DNA from: Escherichia phage vB_EcoS_ESCO40
DNA length: 64,000 nucleotides
Direction: 5' to 3' (one strand)
Sequence record: NC_106514.1
Part shown: one piece after another, positions 19,919 through 57,559 of the stretch
How the letters are laid out: the number at the start of each line of letters is the position of its first letter
Position numbering within the stretch: the stretch's first letter is position 1
Notes under the pieces: model-generated
What the model was told of the DNA's origin: nothing
What the model saw: only the letters and a program-made list of their open reading frames with translations
Databases searched by the model: none
Made by a program: the position numbers and the translations under genes

Positions 19919-19942
19919 AGGGGCTTCGGCCCCTTTCTTTTT
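19919..19942 (+). terminator. intrinsic terminator
   Basis: GGGGC-TTCG-GCCCC hairpin followed by TTTCTTTTT. Confidence 0.75.
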
Positions 19943-19947
19943 AACTT

Positions 19948-20478
19948 ATGAGAAATAAGCTATATTCCTTATTTTTGGAAGACCCTAAAAAATTCATTTT
20001 ATTAGTAAATAAATTCAGAGAAAGATTTTCTTATGATCCTGAGTCCGGCCTACTCTCTAGGAAAGTAGGAACGGGTGGTCAGTTAGCAGGATCTATAGTA
20101 GGCACGGATAATGGAAAAGGGTATTTAAGAACCTCATTTAATAATGAGCAGTATCTTGTACATTTAATTATTTATGCCATGCAGACTAATGAAATGGCAG
20201 AAGTAGTAGACCACAAAGACTTAGATAAGAAGAATAATAGATGGAATAATCTAAGACCAACTAATAAATCAGGTAATGAAAGAAACACAAGCGTAAGATC
20301 TAATAGTACCACAGGTGTTAAAAACGTATATTGGATACCTGGGAGACATAAGTATAGGGTTCAGTTTAAAATCCACGGAGAAACAAAATACTTTGGATAT
20401 TATGATACTATTCAAGAAGCAGAAGTAGTAGCTGATAGGGAACGTAGGCGACTACACGGAGAATTTGCCAGATCATGA
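19948..20478 (+). CDS. HNH homing endonuclease with AP2-like DNA-binding domain
   Basis: VDHKDLDKKNNRWNNLR HNH motif; C-terminal GVKNVYW...YRVQFKIHGETKYFGYY AP2-like segment. Confidence 0.8.
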   Translation: MRNKLYSLFLEDPKKFILLVNKFRERFSYDPESGLLSRKVGTGGQLAGSIVGTDNGKGYLRTSFNNEQYLVHLIIYAMQTNEMAEVVDHKDLDKKNNRWNNLRPTNKSGNERNTSVRSNSTTGVKNVYWIPGRHKYRVQFKIHGETKYFGYYDTIQEAEVVADRERRRLHGEFARS

Positions 20479-21452
20479 AAATACTCTTTAGTGCTGATCA
20501 CCATATAAAACTTGGGCAAGATAAAATTCCCAAAGAATGGCAGAAGAAAAGATTCTTAATGCTGGGAGACCGTCTAAATGATATATTCCATAATCATAAC
20601 TGTGATTTGCATATTATTGGTGGTGATTTATTTGATCATTCCGACCCGTCGTCGGAAGAAGTAGAACTTCTAGAAAAATTTATGTCTAGGCTAGATCATA
20701 TAGGAATGGTATTTACAGGTAATCATGAATTAATAACTAAAACCATTTCGTGCCTATATCATTATGCGGGGGTTATTAACAAAGTAACTAGTGGGAAGTG
20801 GGAAGTAATTACCAAACCATATCGTTCCCCTGAATTTGATATTGTTCCGTATGATGAGATCCATAAATCTAAGTGGAAACCTCCTGTATCAAAACTATGT
20901 TTCACGCATGTTCGTGGTGAAATCCCTCCGCATGTAAAACCAGAAATTGATCTAACTAAGTACAACTGTTATGATACTGTAATTGCTGGCGATTTACATT
21001 CTTATACTAATAGCCAGACTATCGGATCTACTAGACTTCTCTACCCAGGCTCTCCATTAACTACATCGTTCCATAGAGAACGCACAAAAGGTACAAATGG
21101 TTGCTTTATCATTGATACCGACACATTAAAAGTAGAATGGATTGAACTAGGTGATTTACCACAACTGATTCGTAAAACAATCGGAGCAGGTGAAGAGATG
21201 GAACCTAGTGATTATGATCGTGTAGTCTACGAAGTTACTGGTGACGTTGTTCAATTAAAGTCTATTAAAGACTCTGATTTATTAGATAAGAAGATTAACC
21301 ATCGAGTTACTAAAGATGCTAAGTTAAATCTTGTTGATCTTGATATGTTGGGCGAACTTGAACTTTACTTCCGTGAAGTCGAGAAGCTATCTCAAGGCGA
21401 CATTGATAGAATCTTGGCTAGAGCTGCGAAATATGTCAAAGATTACAATTAA
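20475..21452 (+). CDS. SbcD/Mre11-like nuclease
   Basis: Calcineurin-like phosphoesterase motifs SADHHI, GGDLFDH, TGNHE. Confidence 0.8.
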   Translation: MKILFSADHHIKLGQDKIPKEWQKKRFLMLGDRLNDIFHNHNCDLHIIGGDLFDHSDPSSEEVELLEKFMSRLDHIGMVFTGNHELITKTISCLYHYAGVINKVTSGKWEVITKPYRSPEFDIVPYDEIHKSKWKPPVSKLCFTHVRGEIPPHVKPEIDLTKYNCYDTVIAGDLHSYTNSQTIGSTRLLYPGSPLTTSFHRERTKGTNGCFIIDTDTLKVEWIELGDLPQLIRKTIGAGEEMEPSDYDRVVYEVTGDVVQLKSIKDSDLLDKKINHRVTKDAKLNLVDLDMLGELELYFREVEKLSQGDIDRILARAAKYVKDYN

Positions 21453-23271
21453 GACACTAAAATTTAGTAACGTTATGTCTTACGGTAAGGACATCGTAAT
21501 TCATTTCGATAAGAATCCAGTTACTCAACTAATTGGTGGCAATGGGCTAGGGAAATCCACCATCGCTACGGTTATCGAGGAATTGTTTTATAACAAGAAC
21601 TCTCGAGGTATCAAGAAGGATGCTCTATTCTCCTGGGCTTCTCCGAAGAAAGAATACGATATGCACGCTTACTTTTCAAAAGATGATGATGAGTATGAGC
21701 TGCATAAAGTTGTCAAGTCAACTGCTAAAGTAACGTTGATTAAGAATGGGGAAGATATTAGTGGGCACACGGCAACCCAAACATACAAGATGATTGAAGA
21801 GATTATGGGTGGTGACTTTCAAACATTCACCAAACTGATTTATCAATCAGTGGGTTCTAATCTAGATTTTCTAAAAGCAACAGATGCAACACGTAAGGCT
21901 TTTCTTGTTAACTTGTTCAATCAGGAACAATACAAAGAAATGTCGGAAACTATTAAGGCCGACCGTAAAGAAATAGCAAATACCTTAAATAATTTGCAGG
22001 GCCAAATGGCTGTAATTACGAAAATCCTTAATGGAAAAAATAATCTAGGAACTTTGCAGGAACCTGTAGAGGTGCCGGAGTTTGATGAAGAGCCATTAGC
22101 GCAAGAACTTACTGAATCGAAAATTAAGGCGGCATTAGCCAAGTCTCAAGAGGCTAATATTACTAAGTTGCGTAATTTGGACAAAGCTGTACAAGTTGCC
22201 GAACAATCTTTCGAACCTTTCAAAAATTTGCCCGCGCCCACCGACCAAAATGAAGAGATCTCGAGTGTTACGCGTGACCTAACGATTGTGACCTCACGTG
22301 CGAGCGAAGTTAAGAAACGTTATCAGAAGTTCAAGCAAGAGGCTTCGAATACTGAATGCCCTACTTGCGGTACTCATCTAGATACAACTGCTGCTCAAAA
22401 AGCAATGGATATGGCTAGAGTAGAATATGATCCTCTGTTCAAAGAGAAGCAATCTCTTGAAGCTAAGCTAGAACAGTTGAAGAAAGAACAACTTGAGTAC
22501 GTTGCGTATACTAGAGCAAAAGATGCTCTTGATAAAGCGGTGGTAGCTAGAGACGAGTTCAAAAATTCAATGAGTGATGCTTCTTTTGAAGAACTCAATG
22601 TGCAAATCCTACAGGTGCAAATCCGACAATTAGAACAGGCAATCGCTGATGGACGTTCTAAGGTTGCAATTGCCAAAGAGCATAATGCAAATGTAGAATT
22701 AGCCAATGCAAAATATAAAGCAAAGTTAGAACAGATTGAGAAAGCAGAAGCAGAAATGACTGAGATTACTTCCAAACTGAATGGAGTAGCCGAAGCTGTA
22801 GCTGATCTTGATATTCTAATTGCTGCTTTGAAAAATCTGGTGGGGTATAAACTAGAGCATAGTGTGAAAGTATTTGAAGAACTAATTAATAAATACCTTT
22901 CCATTATGACTGGAGGTAAATTCGCACTTGGATTTGAACTGGATGAAACGAAGTTACAAGTAGTAATCTTCAATGATGGAAACCGTACCAGTATGGAGAA
23001 CTGCTCTACTGGTCAGCAAAGTCGAATTAATCTAGCAACCCTGTTAGCTATTCGGATGCTGTTAACATCTATTAGTAAAGTTAATATTAATCTTCTATTC
23101 CTTGATGAAGTAATTAGCTTTATTGATACGAAAGGACTTGATACTCTCGTTGAACTATTAAATGAGGAAGAAAGTCTAAATTCTATCATTGTTTCTCATG
23201 GGCATACGCATCCATTAGCTCATAAGATTACTGTCAAAAAAGATGCAGAAGGATTTTCCTACTTAGAATAA
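21433..23271 (+). CDS. SbcC/Rad50-like ATPase
   Basis: N-terminal Walker A GGNGLGKST, central coiled coil with CPTCG zinc hook, C-terminal LLFLDEVISFID Walker B/D-loop; start taken at ATG 21433 (MSKITIK). Confidence 0.8.
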   Translation: MSKITIKTLKFSNVMSYGKDIVIHFDKNPVTQLIGGNGLGKSTIATVIEELFYNKNSRGIKKDALFSWASPKKEYDMHAYFSKDDDEYELHKVVKSTAKVTLIKNGEDISGHTATQTYKMIEEIMGGDFQTFTKLIYQSVGSNLDFLKATDATRKAFLVNLFNQEQYKEMSETIKADRKEIANTLNNLQGQMAVITKILNGKNNLGTLQEPVEVPEFDEEPLAQELTESKIKAALAKSQEANITKLRNLDKAVQVAEQSFEPFKNLPAPTDQNEEISSVTRDLTIVTSRASEVKKRYQKFKQEASNTECPTCGTHLDTTAAQKAMDMARVEYDPLFKEKQSLEAKLEQLKKEQLEYVAYTRAKDALDKAVVARDEFKNSMSDASFEELNVQILQVQIRQLEQAIADGRSKVAIAKEHNANVELANAKYKAKLEQIEKAEAEMTEITSKLNGVAEAVADLDILIAALKNLVGYKLEHSVKVFEELINKYLSIMTGGKFALGFELDETKLQVVIFNDGNRTSMENCSTGQQSRINLATLLAIRMLLTSISKVNINLLFLDEVISFIDTKGLDTLVELLNEEESLNSIIVSHGHTHPLAHKITVKKDAEGFSYLE

Positions 23272-51006: not shown

Positions 51007-52764
51007 TTAGGTAAGGCGCTGAACTGTTACTCTTAATCTAGGTAGGAAAACTGCGCTACCCAAACTCACGTGCATAACTACTCCTAACTCTACATTTCCA
51101 TTTCCTAAATTTTTAACAGTGTATATAAAACTGTTCCTACTTAGAGCATTGTTAGGTGTATATCTAAAAGCAGATGTAGTATGAAAAGGTACTAGATAAC
51201 CCACAGGTAGCGTTAAAATCTGGTGGAATATTGCATCTCCATTACTATAACTATGCGCTTTTCTTCCTTGTACTTGAAACACACCATTATTCCATGTATT
51301 AGCTGGAACACCCGCACAATTAAGATTACCTGATATAACTTCAGTAGTAAGAATTACTGTAGCATTTCCGCCTGGTATACCTAGCCCAATAGTTGATAAA
51401 CCAACGTATCTGTCCCCAGTTCCTGGATAGTGGGGTGTAATATCATCTCCCATATAAGAACTACCTACATTTCCACTAAAAAGTCGAAGTGGAACTGCTG
51501 ATGGTCCCCAAACAACCCCATGTTCATTACCAATAGTATTATTATTTGAGTTTACGTACCATTGTTTACCGGCCCCAAATTTATAAATGCTAATCTGTGA
51601 TTTAGCTCCCCCATAATCTACAGGAGACCACAACCCTCCGTTACTAGATCCTACAAGTTCACACCTTGCAGTGGTGTCCCCAAAAACCCCAGTATACGCT
51701 GCGTTATTCCCTATATACTCCATATCAGGACGATAACCTAGGTTACCAAAGGCATTCTGATTTATAAATTTATATCCGGTATTAGGGAGACTTACCCCTT
51801 TAATTATGAAATTAGAAGGAGATATAAGAATATCAGAACCAGTAAAGGGATTGCCGGAAATACTCATTCCACCATTAGAGTACCTTAAATTAAGAACATA
51901 CCAAATAACCTTAGTAGGAGTTATATTATACCAGTCCTGTAGTATTGTAGAGTCACCCGACTGGTTGGCCAGATTAGTAGTAGATCCCCTACAAACAAAT
52001 CTGTTCCCGCCGTCGTGGTACATAGTATTTACACTACCTGGGAGCCCTTGCCTAACCCCACCATACCCACGTATATTAGAATTACAAACATAAAACCAAT
52101 CATGCCCTCTATGCGCTGCCCCTAGGGGTGACATCCATCCAGGATCCCAATAGTACTGGTTATTCCCATCTACAGGTACTGTGCTACTATTAGTAGGAAA
52201 ACCTAATTGTGCAAAGGCTTCTGCAACAGTAACACCTACAGGAGCTCCCGCACCGGGCCTAACTATACCATGGTATGTACTATGTAACGTAGTACCCCCT
52301 GTGCCACTCCTAGAGATAGATTCTTCGTGCCCTATCGAGGGATTATAATTATAAGTTCCAGATGCTAGACTATTACCGAAGGCAAATCCACTGGTTTGAG
52401 AAACACTAGCAAAAGATCTAAAGGGATCTGCCTGGGTGGCAACTATAGTTTGACCAACTTTACTCTGAGTACCATTAAGAAAAGCTCTGTGAGTACCATT
52501 AATTTCAATAGCAGTTAGTATAACTCTACCAGGATCGTTAGATTTAATATTTACTATATCAGAAGGCATTTGACATACAAAAAACCCATTCCCGGCATTG
52601 CCTAATCCTGCCTCATAAGTACCATCAACTAGAACAAATGGCATATCACTATGAAAAATACTATTATTGTTTGGACTATAGTGACGATTAATGTCACCAC
52701 CAGATTCAGTATTTAAAGATAGTACGGTCTTACCATCGCTATATTTTCCAGCGAAAAAACCCAT
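51007..52764 (-). CDS. receptor-binding tail protein (pb5-like)
   Basis: 585 aa, Gly/Asn/Ser-rich; N-terminus MGFFAGK and C-terminus VQRLT resemble T5 pb5 as recalled; divergent from the lipoprotein gene. Confidence 0.7.
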
Positions 52765-52789
52765 ATAATCTCCTATTATAAAAATGTAT

Positions 52790-52818
52790 TTGCTTTCATC
52801 CCTCTATTTTGCTATAAT
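52790..52818 (+). promoter_or_regulatory. T5-type early promoter (P9)
   Basis: TTGCTT-17 bp-TATAAT then AGACTCATAAATTAGAAATGGAGAG. Confidence 0.75.
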
Positions 52819-52849
52819 AGACTCATAAATTAGAAATGGAGAGATAAAT

Positions 52850-53116
52850 ATGAAAAAGTTTGTAATTGCACTAGTTGCCACAGTTATGTTATCTGGTTGT
52901 GCACCTGCTCCCAAACCATTTTGTACGGGATTTGTAAAATCTTTTGGCGGTGCGGGAGAAGAACATTACGGTCTCAAGGTTCAAAAAGTTCGTATTAAGG
53001 GAGATCGCTTTCCAGTAGTACAGCTCCGTACTAAATTTGGGTGGTGGGATCTCAGTCAGTTTGACCTTAAATATGGTGATTGTAAATTTAAACTAGAGCA
53101 ATCTAATTACCTGTAA
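52850..53116 (+). CDS. llp: lipoprotein, Llp-like (receptor-blocking superinfection exclusion)
   Basis: Signal peptide with lipobox MLSGC; divergent arrangement next to the receptor-binding protein gene. Confidence 0.7.
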   Translation: MKKFVIALVATVMLSGCAPAPKPFCTGFVKSFGGAGEEHYGLKVQKVRIKGDRFPVVQLRTKFGWWDLSQFDLKYGDCKFKLEQSNYL

Positions 53117-53291
53117 TTAGTATAAAGCAAAAATACATCCAAGTAAACTAAATTTTTTATTTCTTGGATGGTATACTGGCAGAAAACACTATATAAAAAA
53201 GTAGAAGTCCTTCTAGGAGTTCACAGGCACGGTCGGTTATGCACAAATTGTAGAATATTTTAAATACCACACTTATAGGAGCATGAAAGAT

Positions 53292-53420
53292 ATGTCAAAC
53301 AAAAGAAAGAGCAGGCGTGGAGAAGTGTATGAAAGTTGGATAAATAGTTTTGGGTTCGGAACTATCCTATTCTTTATTTTCGTAGGTTTTTGGTTGGCAG
53401 CTATGGCGGGGTGGATTTAA
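53292..53420 (+). CDS. small membrane protein (42 aa)
   Basis: ATG 10 nt after AGGAG; basic N-terminus then one hydrophobic helix (FGTILFFIFVGFWLAAMAGW); not in the ORF track because it is under 60 aa. Confidence 0.45.
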   Translation: MSNKRKSRRGEVYESWINSFGFGTILFFIFVGFWLAAMAGWI

Positions 53421-53527
53421 TGGAATGGGTAATTATTGCACTGCTAGGGGTTGTTATTATCGGACAATGTATTTTAGATAATCACTTAGCTAGAATTGAA
53501 ACTTTACTAACGGAGAAACGTAAATGA
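53420..53527 (+). CDS. small membrane protein (35 aa)
   Basis: Start overlaps upstream stop (TAATG); hydrophobic helix WVIIALLGVVIIGQCIL. Confidence 0.4.
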   Translation: MEWVIIALLGVVIIGQCILDNHLARIETLLTEKRK

Positions 53528-53718
53528 TGGAAGTAGTAGCTACACTAATAGTAATACTAGTCTGGGCAACTTTCATTGTTTCTTATAACGCGTATGTTCG
53601 CCTAAAAACTCTAGAGGCTCAAGTAAAACAGCAACAATTTGCTATAGAAAAATTAGTAGAACTCCAACGTTGTGATAGTACCCGTATTCTGCAAATTGAG
53701 AGGGAATTAGATGTTTAG
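53524..53718 (+). CDS. small membrane protein (64 aa)
   Basis: Start overlaps upstream stop (ATGA); hydrophobic helix VVATLIVILVWATFIV then charged coiled-coil-like tail. Confidence 0.5.
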   Translation: MMEVVATLIVILVWATFIVSYNAYVRLKTLEAQVKQQQFAIEKLVELQRCDSTRILQIERELDV

Positions 53719-53950
53719 TATTATAGTTGCTTTTATTATCGGGATAATCGCGGGAGTTTTCGGAATGACTGCGGCTATTAACAAGCATCGTAAGTATACT
53801 GCGGAAGTATCGCGGGAGATTGCGGAAAGAGAGCGAAAGTTTGACGAGAAACGTGCGGAGTTTGACGAGAAACGTGCGGAGTTTGAGCGGGAGTGGAATG
53901 ATGGTTCAAGAAGTTCTCGGAGGAGATTCAAGATAAATGGCAAATCATAA
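53711..53950 (+). CDS. small membrane protein (79 aa)
   Basis: Hydrophobic helix IIVAFIIGIIAGVFGMTAAI then charged tail with duplicated FDEKRAE. Confidence 0.5.
   Translation: MFSIIVAFIIGIIAGVFGMTAAINKHRKYTAEVSREIAERERKFDEKRAEFDEKRAEFEREWNDGSRSSRRRFKINGKS
53838..53879. repeat. 21-bp direct duplication inside the small membrane-protein gene
   Basis: GTTTGACGAGAAACGTGCGGA occurs twice in tandem. Confidence 0.8.
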
Positions 53951-54434
53951 ACCTCTTCTATCATTAGAAGAATATAAGAAAAAATATGACTATGATCCAG
54001 AGGCAGGTATATTTACTTGGAGTTCAGGGAGTCGTAAAGGTAAACCAGCAGGTAGTAGAAATAGTTCAGGAATATCCCTATCAATGGGTAGTAATGGGTT
54101 GTATAAGGCTCATCGGGTAGCGTATCTATACATGACAGGAGAAGACCCGGGTGAGTTTCTCATTGACCACAAAGATCAAGACCCCTTTAACAATAGATGG
54201 AATAACTTACGTAAAGCAACAAATGCAGAGAATGGAAAAAACTCTTCGGGATGGAAGAATGAGTCTACAGGGGTTAAGGGAGTATATAAACGCGGAGAGG
54301 GAAAGTTCGAAGCAAAACTACGTGTAAATGGTAATAGAATTACCATAGGAACTTTTAAAACTCTTGAGCAGGCTGAAAAAGAACTTAGAAAAGCCAGGGA
54401 GCATTACCACGGTGAGTTTGCAAACCATAATTAA
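53937..54434 (+). CDS. HNH homing endonuclease with AP2-like domain
   Basis: IDHKDQDPFNNRWNNLR HNH motif; GVKGVYKRGEGKFEAKLRVNGNRITIGTF AP2-like segment; paralog of the 19948-20478 product. Confidence 0.8.
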   Translation: MANHKPLLSLEEYKKKYDYDPEAGIFTWSSGSRKGKPAGSRNSSGISLSMGSNGLYKAHRVAYLYMTGEDPGEFLIDHKDQDPFNNRWNNLRKATNAENGKNSSGWKNESTGVKGVYKRGEGKFEAKLRVNGNRITIGTFKTLEQAEKELRKAREHYHGEFANHN

Positions 54435-54608: not shown

Positions 54609-55343
54609 TTAGGCAACTTTTAATTTCTCGATGTACTGTTGCGGGCTGCAACTATATTCTGCGCGTTCTTCCTCGGTCATACTTTCCCAGCATAATTTTA
54701 AACGGTCGGCTAGAAATTGATAATCATTATCATCCTCAAGAGATTCATCAATAAAGGTTTCACCTATCAATGTGACACCGATTGATAGAATATCGTTAAT
54801 AGCTTGCGCGTCCAGCGTTTTAAATCCGTATGATGCCGCCGCTGATAGCACGCCTTTATGATCATCAATCATAGTAAAATCAGCGTTCGGATAAAGCTGT
54901 TTAAATAACTCAAAGTAATGGCTTTTATATATAGCGTCTTTACTGTGGTATATTTCGCTAACTTTATCAGCTTCAAAATATTTGTGCAGTGTATCGCGGG
55001 AAAATACGCGGATATTACTATCCCCACGCCCTCGCAGTCCTTGCTTGCGTAGGTAATAATAATCGGACTTGCTCATCAGTCGAGCGGTGCAGATAATGTT
55101 TAACGTGTTAACGTCATTCATACATTGGCGCATATATGTAACAAGCGGCAAGAGTGTATCTTGCATTATTAAATCGTGTTTACATGCTTCATTCTTGTAC
55201 TTATTTAGATCTAGATTGCCGTCGCTATCAAAGCAAGGCGCTACGCGATGGAATGAATTAACGATAGTGCCATCTAGATCCCAAATCATGACGCGGGAAA
55301 TATGCGGGAAATTACGGGTAATATTCGTTTTAACTTGATTCAT
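54609..55343 (-). CDS. dmp: HAD-family deoxyribonucleoside 5'-monophosphatase-like protein
   Basis: 244 aa; MIWDLDGTI HAD motif I; position next to A2-like and A1-like genes. Confidence 0.6.
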   Translation of the reverse strand: MNQVKTNITRNFPHISRVMIWDLDGTIVNSFHRVAPCFDSDGNLDLNKYKNEACKHDLIMQDTLLPLVTYMRQCMNDVNTLNIICTARLMSKSDYYYLRKQGLRGRGDSNIRVFSRDTLHKYFEADKVSEIYHSKDAIYKSHYFELFKQLYPNADFTMIDDHKGVLSAAASYGFKTLDAQAINDILSIGVTLIGETFIDESLEDDNDYQFLADRLKLCWESMTEEERAEYSCSPQQYIEKLKVA

Positions 55344-55417
55344 TTTGTTACGTTCTCCTTTTAAGGGATTAAATTAAATTAATCCAGCCCACTGGATGGG
55401 CTGGACTATTCCAGCTA

Positions 55418-55813
55418 TCAAAGACCATAAGCCAACGCATCGGCGATGACGGTAATATCCTCGCCCGATACATCGGAACGAATGCCCGCGCATGTAAATA
55501 CCTTCGCACTCATTAGCTGATCATCCAGACAAGCGGGGCAAGGCGCGACAACTGCGAAAGCTAAACCTGATTTTACGGCGTCGATGATAGTCGTTTCCTG
55601 CTTCACTGTGTCAATATAAACGCCTTTCGCCTTGATGCGGCTGGATAGTTTGCCCGTGGTATAGGCGAAAGTCGTGATCTGTAGCGCCTCGTTAAACTCG
55701 ATTAAATCATCGACAACGTGACCGGCCTCAACGTGATACCGCTCACCATTTGAATAAACTAGGACGATGGAAGAACGAGCGCGATCGAATGGAATACGGT
55801 TAGAAATAGCCAT
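55418..55813 (-). CDS. pre-early protein, A2-like
   Basis: 131 aa; assignment by size and position between dmp-like and A1-like genes. Confidence 0.4.
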   Translation of the reverse strand: MAISNRIPFDRARSSIVLVYSNGERYHVEAGHVVDDLIEFNEALQITTFAYTTGKLSSRIKAKGVYIDTVKQETTIIDAVKSGLAFAVVAPCPACLDDQLMSAKVFTCAGIRSDVSGEDITVIADALAYGL

Positions 55814-55885
55814 GTTTATAGCTCCAATTAATTTAATAAACTTTTATAGCGGCTATATTTCAAGCCGCCAACCTGATTTATTGGC

Positions 55886-57559
55886 TTACTGTACAAAAAA
55901 TTTGCCGTTCTTAAAGTCGATCAAAGTGCGCTGGCCGTTCGCATAGGTAATAACATGCGTTTGCGTCCAGCTCGACGCGCCAACGTTATAGCCCATGTCC
56001 AGACTACCAGATACGCCAGCGGTATAAACGCCGCCGTAAATGCTGGCGGTGTGAGTGTGCCCCGTGTTTAATTTGCCCAATTTCTTAAATTGCTTCGGAT
56101 TGCCACGGCTCCCGTTAATGCCATTGTGACCGTGTACACCGCACTCAATGCCTGCAATCTTGAAAGATTGATCAGTGGTCAGGAAAATAGCGTTAAATTC
56201 ACAACCTGCAACCTTGCGCAGCGCATAATCCAGCACGTTGAAAGTATCGTCTTTTTCTGCAATAGCTCCGTAAATCGCAGCATTAAGGCGGTGATATAGT
56301 TCCGCGTTGGCTGGATCGTCTTTAATGTTAGCATTACGATCATCAAGCCAACGGGATAACGCCAGATCATGGTTAGATTCAACAATGATCGTTTGAGCAA
56401 AATCGCGCTCCATTGATTCCAGTACGCGCCCGGTATCGATAAGGTCATCCAGAACTTTATCACGTCCGGCGGCGTATTGTTTTGCTAGGAATACACCAGA
56501 AGCGCGGTTGTGATGATTGCGCGATGTAAAATCATGCACGTCATGCACGAATTGATATTTTGGTTTAAGAATATCAACAAGCCCGTAGGTATCACCATGC
56601 CCCCACGACGCAGCGGCGCACTCCTCATCCAATTTTTCGGCGTGTATGTCGCCATATTGCAAGCCTAAAACATGATCGGACGTTTCAAAGCATCCGGCGG
56701 GAGTGGCGCAAATATTCAAATCGTAAAACATGCCGCTTTCGTCCATCGTTTCAAGCTGGCGAACAAAAAATTCACCGTCCTCGTCAAACTCAACAATCAG
56801 CGCACCAAAATTATGTAGCGCCTCGGCCTTTTGCCCTGCCTTTTGCTGAATGTAGTTTTTGAGCGTTGCCGTTCCGGTCGAGTACATACGGCGCACTACT
56901 TCACCTTTTAAAGCTGGGACGCTTTCGGCGGTGATTTTAGCCGCTCCAATTGCCAGACCTTCCAGATTAAGCGCGGTTGCAGTTTCAGCGAATCCAGAAA
57001 GCGGATAATCTGCAGTTGGTAACACGTTAATCTCAGCCATGAAAGCAAAACGGCGATTATTCAAAAACACGTTTTTATTGCAGATATATTTATCAAACGC
57101 AGAATCATATTTGATTCCGTCCGCGCCCTCACCATTTTGAAAACCGTTTTTATTATAAATATACTTGCTAACCAGCAAATCAGCGCCAATAAATTGGGCA
57201 TATTGTTCAAGCGAGGATAAAAAGTTTTTATGCGGGAAAGTATTATTCTGAATCGATGTAATAATAAAGCGTTTACCTTGTTTTACTTCCCAGCTTTCCA
57301 CCGTGCTAGAAATAACTCCAGCGGCTTCAGGGCGGTCATCGTTTTTAATAGCTTTTACAGTTTTTGCCGCTTTTGGTTTCGCTGGTTTATTTGCTTCCAG
57401 CCAATCACAAATAGCGGTGGAATGCTTTGGAGTATCGTAAACCATTTTAGAAATATCGTCACATACTTCCAATTTAGTGGCGCGCAGACGTTTACCATAG
57501 AAATTAAAGTCAGCGGCCATTTTCAGGATAACGGTTTGTTTTTCTGCGGAAATAATCAT
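55886..57559 (-). CDS. A1: pre-early protein A1-like (metallophosphoesterase-type)
   Basis: 557 aa; calcineurin-like motifs GDIHAE, GHGD, NHD, GHTH in the C-terminal half; position and size match T5 A1. Confidence 0.6.
   Translation of the reverse strand: MIISAEKQTVILKMAADFNFYGKRLRATKLEVCDDISKMVYDTPKHSTAICDWLEANKPAKPKAAKTVKAIKNDDRPEAAGVISSTVESWEVKQGKRFIITSIQNNTFPHKNFLSSLEQYAQFIGADLLVSKYIYNKNGFQNGEGADGIKYDSAFDKYICNKNVFLNNRRFAFMAEINVLPTADYPLSGFAETATALNLEGLAIGAAKITAESVPALKGEVVRRMYSTGTATLKNYIQQKAGQKAEALHNFGALIVEFDEDGEFFVRQLETMDESGMFYDLNICATPAGCFETSDHVLGLQYGDIHAEKLDEECAAASWGHGDTYGLVDILKPKYQFVHDVHDFTSRNHHNRASGVFLAKQYAAGRDKVLDDLIDTGRVLESMERDFAQTIIVESNHDLALSRWLDDRNANIKDDPANAELYHRLNAAIYGAIAEKDDTFNVLDYALRKVAGCEFNAIFLTTDQSFKIAGIECGVHGHNGINGSRGNPKQFKKLGKLNTGHTHTASIYGGVYTAGVSGSLDMGYNVGASSWTQTHVITYANGQRTLIDFKNGKFFVQ

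Follow-up and report, generated by a model that had tools for sequence, protein, structure and literature searches.

A conserved cluster of four genes for small, predicted single-pass membrane proteins beside llp in the T5-like Escherichia phage vB_EcoS_ESCO40

The window analysed here, the whole stretch of 64,000 nucleotides from Escherichia phage vB_EcoS_ESCO40 (NC_106514.1), is T5-like phage DNA (Tequintavirus). Downstream of the gene llp and co-oriented with it lie four consecutive open reading frames of 42, 35, 64 and 79 amino acids, here called o1 to o4, which had been listed in a preliminary description and are all present on the plus strand. The features of the locus are:

52850 to 53116, plus strand: llp, encoding an 88-amino acid, BF23-type Cor-like receptor-blocking lipoprotein (phrog_1119, E 9.9e-26; lipobox LPAM_1)
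53247 to 53291, plus strand: leader of the cluster, conserved in an alignment of 14 loci
53251 to 53256, plus strand: -10-like TAGAAT followed by ATT, inside the leader; a putative promoter element
53277 to 53281, plus strand: AGGAG ribosome-binding site, inside the leader
53292 to 53420, plus strand: o1, 42 amino acids, orthologue of T5.159 and BF23 Orf1 (phrog_8596, E 3.9e-32)
53420 to 53527, plus strand: o2, 35 amino acids, orthologue of T5.160 and BF23 Orf2 (phrog_6369, E 1.4e-26)
53524 to 53718, plus strand: o3, 64 amino acids, orthologue of T5.161 and BF23 Orf3 (phrog_5851, E 2.3e-35)
53711 to 53950, plus strand: o4, 79 amino acids, orthologue of T5.162 and BF23 Orf4 (phrog_6447, E 9.1e-40)
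53838 to 53886, plus strand: tandem duplication within o4 (TRF: period 21, 2.3 copies, 100% match)
53937 to 54434, plus strand: HNH homing endonuclease gene (PF13392, E 1.7e-13; phrog_99)

We show by sequence comparison that the cluster at 53292-53950 is the orthologue of T5.159-T5.162 and of BF23 Orf1-4, with 95% identity between o1 and T5.159 and 100% between o2 and T5.160. The observation of these four genes is correct but not new, as the T5, BF23 and ESCO40 records already carry the annotations: the T5 record (NC_005859) labels T5.159-T5.162 'contains single transmembrane domain', the BF23 record (DQ097178) lists the same four genes as Orf1-Orf4, and the 79-amino acid product of o4 is identical to UPW39111.1, an annotated protein of vB_EcoS_ESCO40. 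Synteny of the cluster was seen in 27 loci; T5, BF23, phiAPCEc03, SSP1 and at least 20 others have an identical gene order, co-oriented with llp and located between llp and the terminal repeat (dmp). The PHROG matches of all four products cover the whole profile, and all of these PHROGs are labelled 'unknown function'. This identity, and the anatomy of the genes set out below, we hold with high confidence.

The start of the first gene had to be corrected. It had been placed at 53283, where an in-frame ATG would give a 45-amino acid product; this ATG stands 1 nt past GGAG, and relatives do not share it (CATTAAAG, CACGAAAG, CATAAAAG). The start at 53292 is conserved, has proper spacing to AGGAG and yields 42 amino acids. 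The overlaps between stop and start codons that had been pointed out, TAATG for o1/o2 and ATGA for o2/o3, are found as described, and the third junction, o3/o4, is an 8-nt overlap, ATGTTTAG. These junctions are kept in related loci (24 of 26 for o1/o2, 20 of 25 for o2/o3 and 24 of 25 for o3/o4), and a Shine-Dalgarno-like motif is conserved before each of the four starts. Because both the overlaps and the Shine-Dalgarno motifs are conserved, translational coupling of o1 to o4 is supported.

In comparisons within Tequintavirus, the annotated frames have a pN/pS of 0.14 for o1, 0.14 for o2, 0.33 for o3 and 0.37-0.38 for o4, compared with 0.47-2.5 in the two shifted frames, and third codon positions hold most of the variable sites. 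By this measure all four frames are shown to be under purifying selection. Short frames, and hydrophobic ones in particular, arise easily in AT-rich genomes, but that these four are chance, untranslated frames in AT-rich DNA can in practice be set aside, given that the selection is frame-specific, that starts, overlaps and ribosome-binding sites are conserved, and that conservation extends over two genera, in which nucleotide identity falls to about 70%. An 85-amino acid antisense frame at 53707-53964 was taken as a by-product of the coding frames, as were the shadow frames on the plus strand, where the shifted frames are without constraint.

The duplicated FDEKRAE heptad that had been seen in the last gene is real, FDEKRAE-FDEKRAE in the product being encoded by a perfect 21-nt tandem repeat, and it is particular to this phage. 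FDEKRAE is single-copy in 17 of 17 aligned o4 homologues, and also in T5 and BF23, and on this alignment the doubling is a recent strain-specific duplication, not a family feature. The o4 tail is itself variable, falling into several classes that depend on the downstream DNA. In ESCO40 the HNH gene has been inserted downstream of o4, ahead of the terminal repeat. It shares 14 nt with o4, whose C-terminal tail it has replaced, and it is missing at this site in T5 and many relatives.

Each of the four frames contains one 19-residue window with a mean Kyte-Doolittle hydropathy of 2.1-2.6, in agreement with the single hydrophobic helix first ascribed to each. In o1 a basic N-terminus, MSNKRKSRRG, precedes a C-terminal transmembrane helix. 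In o2, o3 and o4 the helix occupies the very N-terminus, and the sequence after it is K/R-rich or helical. In o2 this is a short, amphipathic C-terminal tail and in o3 a heptad-patterned (coiled-coil-like) helix; o4, whose transmembrane helix is glycine-rich, continues with a long helix rich in E, R and K and ends in a basic tail. Structure prediction, which had been proposed as a check, was run on o4, and AlphaFold2 gives one long helix (residues 2-76, pLDDT 74). Between genera, o3 is only about 40% identical, with an invariant C-terminus, ERELDV. By the positive-inside rule, o1 would be tail-anchored with its N-terminus inside and o2, o3 and o4 would be N-out/C-in, with at most 3 predicted periplasmic residues for o2 to o4 and none for o1, so that on these predicted topologies all soluble parts would face the cytoplasm. 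They would comprise the basic peptide of o1, the short amphipathic helix of o2, the coiled coil of o3 with its heptads, and the E/R/K-rich helix of o4. Small-residue helix faces of the GxxxG/A type are present in o1 and o4 and, together with coupled translation, suggest synthesis in fixed proportions and packing into one inner-membrane complex. Overall, hydropathy, pN/pS and the conserved junctions bear out the initial picture, in which small single-pass membrane proteins are encoded by translationally coupled genes adjoining llp.

The same description had found none of the four identifiable by motif, and this holds: searches of Pfam, NCBIfam, PADLOC and Rfam gave no match to the cluster at curated thresholds. 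Below threshold, o4 matched LapA_dom (E 4.6e-4, 20.5 bits compared with a cut-off of 28), ZapG-like (E 2.7e-3, 18.2 compared with 33.5) and FtsL_COG5462 (FtsL; E 0.03, 14 bits compared with 50), and o3 matched DivIC (E 0.044, 14 bits compared with 28.9). With these scores under the cut-offs, membership of the LapA_dom, ZapG-like, DivIC and FtsL families was rejected and the matches were ascribed to shared architecture or composition. Solved structures searched by sequence gave nothing significant, the best match for o3 being HIV-1 Vpu at E 0.14. No functional study of o1 to o4 came up in literature searches that covered the locus tags, the neighbours of llp, T5 transcriptomics, small proteins and counter-defence; the only data are the calls of a CRISPRi-ART screen.

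Among phage records, o1 and o4 are each found in 446, which compares with 440 records with dmp at 80% identity or above, and o3 in 313; o1 and o4 are thus present in nearly every Tequintavirus and Epseptimavirus, and neither turned up beyond these phages. An 18-sequence profile of o4 searched against 1.84 billion representative proteins found no relatives outside the T5-like phages (5 clusters, all T5-like), and an o3 profile searched against 5.8 billion clusters gave 271 matches, the best 120 of which are all of Tequintavirus type. The gene content does vary: o2 is truncated or missing in some Epseptimavirus, a 51-amino acid paralogue of o2 stands in tandem with it in some phages, and o3 is missing from phages 1-23 and TrudiGerster. 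Individually, o1 and o4 are shown to be dispensable. In the CRISPRi-ART screen all four genes were called 'Not Fit' (PMC11879866, supplementary file 16), although the screen is insensitive, the portal protein being likewise 'Not Fit' (PMC11879866, supplementary file 16). On the natural losses and truncations together with these calls from an insensitive screen, the cluster is accessory.

The neighbour of the cluster, Llp, is identical to BF23 Llp at 87 of 88 residues, and llp alone has the marks of a Cor/Llp lipoprotein (a signal peptide with lipobox and a Cor family match), which none of the four frames has. Early expression of llp has been described (Decker et al., 1994, as cited in PMC9586334). 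In the T5 and BF23 records a promoter is annotated only in front of llp. Neither the window nor T5 has a terminator-like site between llp and o1, and the folding of this interval gives no indication of structured RNA (z-score -1.07). It is probable that llp and the cluster form one early transcription unit, and o1 to o4 are probably transcribed early, with llp or just after it. The T5 equivalent of the leader scores as TTTACA-17-TAGAGT with an upstream TG. The cluster is found unchanged beside non-homologous Llp/receptor-binding protein (RBP) cassettes, with homology resuming only about 45 nt upstream of o1, and as judged from these alignments it is inherited separately from the receptor-binding/Llp cassette. 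Because the cluster stays constant next to non-homologous cassettes, a receptor-specific partnership with Llp is disfavoured.

One possibility, which we put forward tentatively and with some doubt, is that o1 to o4 assemble into an accessory complex of the inner membrane that provides protection or exclusion irrespective of the receptor. Such a complex would protect the infected cell at the cytoplasmic membrane and act as a second, receptor-independent layer of exclusion against incoming T5-like DNA or tape-measure channels, complementing the swappable, receptor-specific Llp. The more specific proposal that all four make one hetero-oligomer, which keeps any incoming T5-like phage from forming its channel or passing its DNA or, alternatively, gates the T-type holin, is a speculative one that we think unlikely to hold as stated; it would account for an Llp cassette that is freely swapped next to an o1-o4 cluster that is fixed. 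Consistent with exclusion are the co-orientation of the cluster with early-expressed llp, an interval from llp to o1 that is free of terminator-like sites, the T5 and BF23 records, where a promoter is annotated before llp and nowhere else at this locus, and lysis functions that are accounted for elsewhere in T5; the presence of the same cluster next to non-homologous Llp/RBP cassettes speaks for receptor independence. However, neither experiment nor homology connects any of the four with exclusion, and no Pfam or PHROG match to described exclusion proteins (Imm/Sp-type) was found. With so little periplasmic exposure, the proteins could act on an incoming channel only by helix-helix contacts within the membrane, and four proteins exceed the needs of known Imm-type exclusion. 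Moreover, a pN/pS of 0.14 for o1 and o2 is no less compatible with a conserved host target than with a phage-phage arms race, and the CRISPRi data are uninformative on exclusion and insensitive overall. Taken as a whole, this is the best explanation that we can offer, plausible but held at clearly less than even confidence.

The conservation of o1 and o2 leads to another reading, in which the micro-proteins would bind conserved inner-membrane proteins of the host and modulate them, much as bacterial small membrane proteins or SPO1 gp56 do. Targets would be the divisome FtsQLB, envelope control by YhcB/ZapG-LapA-FtsH, or transporters. We consider such host takeover rather unlikely, although o1 and o2 are very highly conserved over E. 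coli and Salmonella phages, the sub-threshold LapA_dom, ZapG-like and FtsL_COG5462 matches of o4 and the DivIC match of o3 are matches of architecture, and Sugarlandvirus has non-homologous proteins of N-terminal transmembrane segment plus helix at the equivalent position. Every one of these family matches is under its curated cut-off and of a kind expected from composition (a transmembrane segment and a charged helix), and o3 is predicted C-in, the opposite of the orientation of FtsB and FtsL.

A role in lysis timing is a less probable candidate and one that we doubt, in which one or more of the proteins, especially o3 and o4, would be antiholin-like on the T-type holin of T5, or o4 would be an auxiliary one-helix holin or viroporin. 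The predicted cytoplasmic helices of o3 and o4 might contact the holin at its transmembrane segment or in its N-terminal cytoplasmic part. In T4 the small proteins RI and RIII regulate the T holin, and T5, whose holin T5.041 belongs to Phage_holin_T (E 4.6e-119), is without an annotated RI or RIII equivalent. In addition, o4 looks like a generic holin: it is small, its single transmembrane helix is glycine-rich and its C-terminal domain is highly charged. The general description of holins, small proteins with a charged C-terminal domain and one or more transmembrane helices, applies to o3 as well, but it is a weak criterion. Against this, holin and antiholin families were not matched: Pfam gave no holin family for o1 to o4 at E up to 1, the PHROG matches are without lysis annotation, and no RI or RIII match was found in Pfam, NCBIfam or PHROGs. 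As predicted from flanking charges, the topologies lack an RI-style periplasmic domain. The lysis cassette of T5 (T5.040-T5.045: T-type holin, endolysin and Rz-like spanins) is complete and about 90 kb away (cluster at T5 110826-111490, cassette at 19931-23245), so o1 to o4 are not beside the endolysin; the cluster is instead co-oriented with an early gene, and lysis inhibition is, to our knowledge, not a described trait of T5. Because the lysis cassette is complete elsewhere and no holin family is matched, a holin role for o1 to o4 is disfavoured on these comparisons. A spanin function was also rejected, with no lipobox in any of the four sequences, helical parts predicted to be cytoplasmic and Rz-like spanins already annotated in T5.

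It is improbable that the proteins serve in counter-defence, inhibiting a membrane-bound host or plasmid defence system. Accessory status, variable gene content and the tandem o2 paralogue are typical of conflict genes, and o1 to o4 are dispensable in a laboratory K-12 host; yet o1 and o4 are near-universal and slowly evolving, not patchy, there is no match to a PADLOC model or a described inhibitor, and no literature link was found. Finally, a number of GenBank and UniRef records name o2, o3 and o4, which are encoded not far from the receptor-binding protein gene, as tail assembly or tail fibre proteins. These names look like propagated annotation and are very improbable as functions, since the products are of 35-80 amino acids and mostly membrane helix, match no tail assembly or fibre family in Pfam or PHROGs (where they are 'unknown function'), and are encoded on the strand opposite to the late tail and terminase genes, in the orientation of early llp.

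T5 is a classical model phage, and these are four near-universal genes that were annotated around 2005 and have been without an assigned function since; as things stand, they are a commonplace case of conserved phage micro-proteins. To this our analysis adds a firm coding case for all four genes, including those of 35 and 42 amino acids, a corrected start for the first gene, a topology model with all soluble parts cytoplasmic, and evidence of the cluster as a module separate from the receptor/Llp and lysis cassettes, which in combination narrow down the experiments that are worthwhile. If the cluster were a receptor-independent exclusion device or a holin regulator, this would fill a gap in T5 biology and be relevant to the design of T5-like phage cocktails.

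Among known systems, YhcB/ZapG, LapA, FtsB/FtsL/DivIC, SPO1 gp56 and HIV-1 Vpu resemble the ESCO40 proteins in that a charged or coiled-coil helix comes after an N-terminal membrane helix, and the likeness to such small bitopic regulators and viroporins is in form only. In the Sugarlandvirus Klebsiella phage GlastoCabaret, proteins of 74 and 153 amino acids are encoded between the RBP gene and dmp, the genomic position of o1 to o4, and they have a similar layout of N-terminal membrane helix plus helix; there are, however, two genes rather than four, no llp, and no significant homology to the ESCO40 proteins (hhalign probability 16% and 1%). With respect to the T4 holin T and its regulators RI and RIII, T5 has a true T-family holin, the cluster proteins are antiholin-like in size and o4 is holin-like in layout, but the proteins are not homologous to RI or RIII, are encoded outside the lysis cassette and are predicted to have no periplasmic domain of the kind on which RI relies. 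T4 Imm and Sp, HK97 gp15 and P22 SieA are phage inner-membrane superinfection-exclusion proteins, and like o1 to o4 they are small, non-essential phage membrane proteins, with early synthesis as a further, probable likeness; the ESCO40 set, which adjoins a known exclusion gene, differs in having no sequence similarity to them, four coupled genes, almost no periplasmic exposure and an exclusion activity that is only proposed. The closest systems are the clusters of T5 and BF23. ESCO40 o4 differs from its counterparts there by the extra 7-residue duplication and by the tail replaced through insertion of the HNH gene, and ESCO40 llp is of the BF23 and not the T5 type, but the four ESCO40 proteins are 84-100% identical to those of T5 (o4 lowest, at about 84%) and near-identical to those of BF23, with gene order, overlaps, location between llp and the right terminal repeat and a predicted single transmembrane helix all the same in the three phages.

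We show that four small ORFs downstream of llp, the gene for a receptor-blocking lipoprotein, form a conserved, coupled four-gene micro-protein operon, whose members are here termed o1 to o4.

Features of the operon (the cluster) and its neighbourhood.
upstream: terminase genes
upstream, strand opposite to the cluster: receptor-binding protein (RBP), 585 aa
52850-53116, +: llp, Llp lipoprotein, 88 aa, 87/88 identical to BF23 Llp
53292-53420, +: o1, 42 aa; C-terminal helix preceded by the basic peptide MSNKRKSRRG
53420-53527, +: o2, 35 aa; helix from residue 1-3, then K/R-rich sequence
53524-53718, +: o3, 64 aa; helix from residue 1-3, then K/R-rich sequence
53711-53950, +: o4, 79 aa; helix from residue 1-3, then K/R-rich sequence
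53937-54434, +: gene for an HNH homing endonuclease (PF13392), an insertion separating o4 from the terminal repeat
54609-55343, -: dmp, a T5 terminal-repeat gene
55886-57559, -: A1, a T5 terminal-repeat gene

The preliminary description had proposed four consecutive ORFs of 42, 35, 64 and 79 codons, each with one hydrophobic helix, and had taken their products to be small membrane proteins. This is confirmed: all four are present on the + strand at 53292-53950, and each contains a single 19-residue hydrophobic window with a mean Kyte-Doolittle hydropathy of 2.1-2.6. Two minor amendments are needed. Specifically, the proposed start at 53283 is an upstream ATG without conservation, the true start of the 42-aa gene being 53292; and of the overlapping starts, TAATG (o1/o2) and ATGA (o2/o3) are as described, whereas the o3/o4 junction is longer than claimed, an 8-nt overlap (ATGTTTAG). 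Nei-Gojobori proportions were calculated for the four ORFs taken from 26 related loci and the window. Within Tequintavirus pN/pS is 0.14 for both o1 and o2, 0.33 for o3 and 0.37-0.38 for o4 (pS 0.23-0.35), as against 0.47-2.5 in the two shifted frames of the same alignments, and variation falls preferentially on third codon positions. The junctions are conserved among related loci (TAATG 24/26, ATGA 20/25, ATGTTTAG 24/25), and a conserved purine-rich motif lies 5' of each start. Given frame-specific pN/pS, conserved overlaps and these motifs, all four are coding genes and most likely translationally coupled.

The cluster has been recorded before, as hypothetical genes in the annotation of the model phage T5 (NC_005859), where T5.159 (42 aa), T5.160 (35 aa), T5.161 (64 aa) and T5.162 (81 aa) each bear the note 'contains single transmembrane domain', with llp (T5.158) on one side of the set and the right terminal repeat on the other. 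Likewise, in the BF23 record (DQ097178) Orf1-Orf4 correspond to o1-o4 and precede the 'right terminal redundant region'. The DNA of the region is 94% identical to Escherichia phage phiAPCEc03, with matches in hundreds of T5-like phages, and o4 is exactly UPW39111.1, 'putative membrane protein' of Escherichia phage vB_EcoS_ESCO40. The four genes belong to PHROGs 8596, 6369, 5851 and 6447 respectively, none with a known function. Downstream, dmp and A1 mark the start of the terminal repeat; in the window they (54609-57559, -) adjoin the right-end unique genes directly, and thus the long terminal repeat has been collapsed or permuted in the source assembly.

Searching 50,697 phage records with tblastn gave matches to o1 and o4 in 446 records each, to o3 in 313 and to o2 in 189, the last count being limited by the short query. 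Since 440 records have dmp at 80% identity or more, practically every member of Tequintavirus and Epseptimavirus carries o1 and o4. No credible match to either was found in other phage groups in this search, and an o4 profile against 1.84 billion representative proteins reached only five clusters, all T5-like. Distant Demerecviridae of Klebsiella, Proteus and Vibrio possess dmp at no more than 62% identity. Between the two genera the o3 protein shares only ~40% identity; o3 is absent from phage 1-23, TrudiGerster lacks o2 and o3, o2 is truncated in Ob_P, and o3 or o4 is truncated in isolated phages. Taken together, o1 and o4 are the conserved core and o2 and o3 are optional. A published CRISPRi-ART screen of T5 scored each of the four genes as 'Not Fit', with mean guide fitness of -3.6 to -4.1 and p of 0.24-0.91; however, this is weak evidence on dispensability because the portal gene was likewise 'Not Fit' (PMC11879866, supplementary file 16). 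None of the four appears to be essential in the laboratory. Gene content also varies by addition: two Tequintavirus phages carry a 51-aa o2 paralogue (phrog_6369, E 1.6e-16) between o1 and o2, joined by the same TAATG-type overlaps (about 2242-2397, local coordinates, in loci L016 and L020); Epseptimavirus has an acidic ORF of ~92-104 aa (phrog_16810, function unknown) between llp and o1, overlapping the o1 start in another frame (L022 2254-2568, L026 2209-2487); and Sw2 has a 71-aa ORF (phrog_20937) 3' of o4.

The T5-type Llp/pb5 cassette is non-homologous to the BF23-type cassette, and phages of the two types show no similarity 3' of llp up to a point ~45 nt 5' of the o1 start, beyond which the sequence is conserved. 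On this basis the cluster is a separate module, independent of receptor type. In the conserved leader lie a -10-like TAGAAT, with ATT after it, and an AGGAG ribosome-binding site; in T5 the same site scores as TTTACA-17-TAGAGT. No terminator-like site was found between llp and o1 in the window or T5, and both the T5 and the BF23 record place a promoter 5' of llp only. The cluster is probably expressed early, via llp read-through or its own putative promoter. Just 3' of llp (53136-53170) is an 8-bp inverted repeat (CATCCAAG ... CTTGGATG) followed by TGGTATACT, which is not a canonical terminator and is kept in phages with BF23-type llp. Within 51007-53116, Llp is near-identical to that of BF23 (87/88) but the RBP matches BF23 Hrs at only 398/595 residues, with divergence concentrated at residues about 100-300 and 450-595, and thus the 'receptor-binding/receptor-blocking module' is itself mosaic.

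From flanking charges and the positive-inside rule, o1 is predicted to be N-in and tail-anchored, and o2, o3 and o4 to be N-out/C-in with at most three periplasmic residues. The heptad a/d positions of the putative cytoplasmic part of o3 are hydrophobic in both genera. An AlphaFold2 model of o4 is a continuous single helix (residues 2-76, pLDDT 74), and A14, G15, G18, A21 and A22 of its membrane helix are invariant in the homologue alignment. The FDEKRAE repeat noted previously is a perfect 21-nt tandem duplication (53838-53886); homologues show recurrent in-frame 7-residue (21-nt) insertions or deletions at differing positions, one within the membrane helix, and the duplication is one more such event. 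The C-terminal tails of o4 sort into several classes according to downstream content, and in the window the tail is replaced by the HNH gene, with which o4 shares a 14-nt overlap. T5 and many relatives lack this HNH gene, and others have a different one at the o4 3' site or upstream of o1 (e.g. polluks).

We tentatively favour, as a candidate role, accessory protection of the infected cell at the cytoplasmic membrane, a receptor-independent exclusion complementing Llp. The products would be made early and in fixed ratio, and may form an inner-membrane complex by packing of their membrane and cytoplasmic helices. This proposal is based on the cluster being co-oriented and probably co-transcribed with a known exclusion gene, dispensable and independent of receptor type, and on T5 lysis functions being accounted for elsewhere, at T5.040-T5.045 (holin, endolysin and two Rz-like spanins). 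A less likely possibility is that the four proteins modulate conserved inner-membrane proteins of the host. Slightly less likely again is antiholin-like or auxiliary-holin action on the T-type holin, T5.041 (L029 2842-3498), which clearly belongs to the T4 'T' family (PF11031, E 4.6e-119); the T5 record annotates no antiholin resembling RI or RIII. A counter-defence role seems improbable. Searches of Pfam, NCBIfam, PHROG and PADLOC gave no holin, antiholin, spanin, exclusion, defence or tail family match for o1-o4. Tail assembly is very improbable: Pfam and PHROG searches found no homology behind the label 'tail assembly protein' or 'tail fiber protein' that o2-o4 bear in several GenBank records and UniRef clusters, and these names appear to be propagated mis-annotation. 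That the ORFs are non-coding can practically be dismissed given their in-frame pN/pS and conserved overlaps. The cluster would be of greater interest if it proved a general exclusion or holin-control device.

Sub-threshold matches of o4 to LapA_dom (E 4.6e-4), ZapG-like (E 2.7e-3) and FtsL (E 0.03), and of o3 to DivIC (E 0.044) and HIV-1 Vpu (E 0.14), are treated as a resemblance of form, that of a transmembrane helix plus a charged helix. Klebsiella phages of Sugarlandvirus have two non-homologous proteins at the genomic position of the cluster, each consisting of an N-terminal membrane helix and a helical domain. In GlastoCabaret these are 74 and 153 aa long (L027 5341-6030) and lie between the RBP gene and dmp, where llp is absent; homology to o3 or o4 was not detected.
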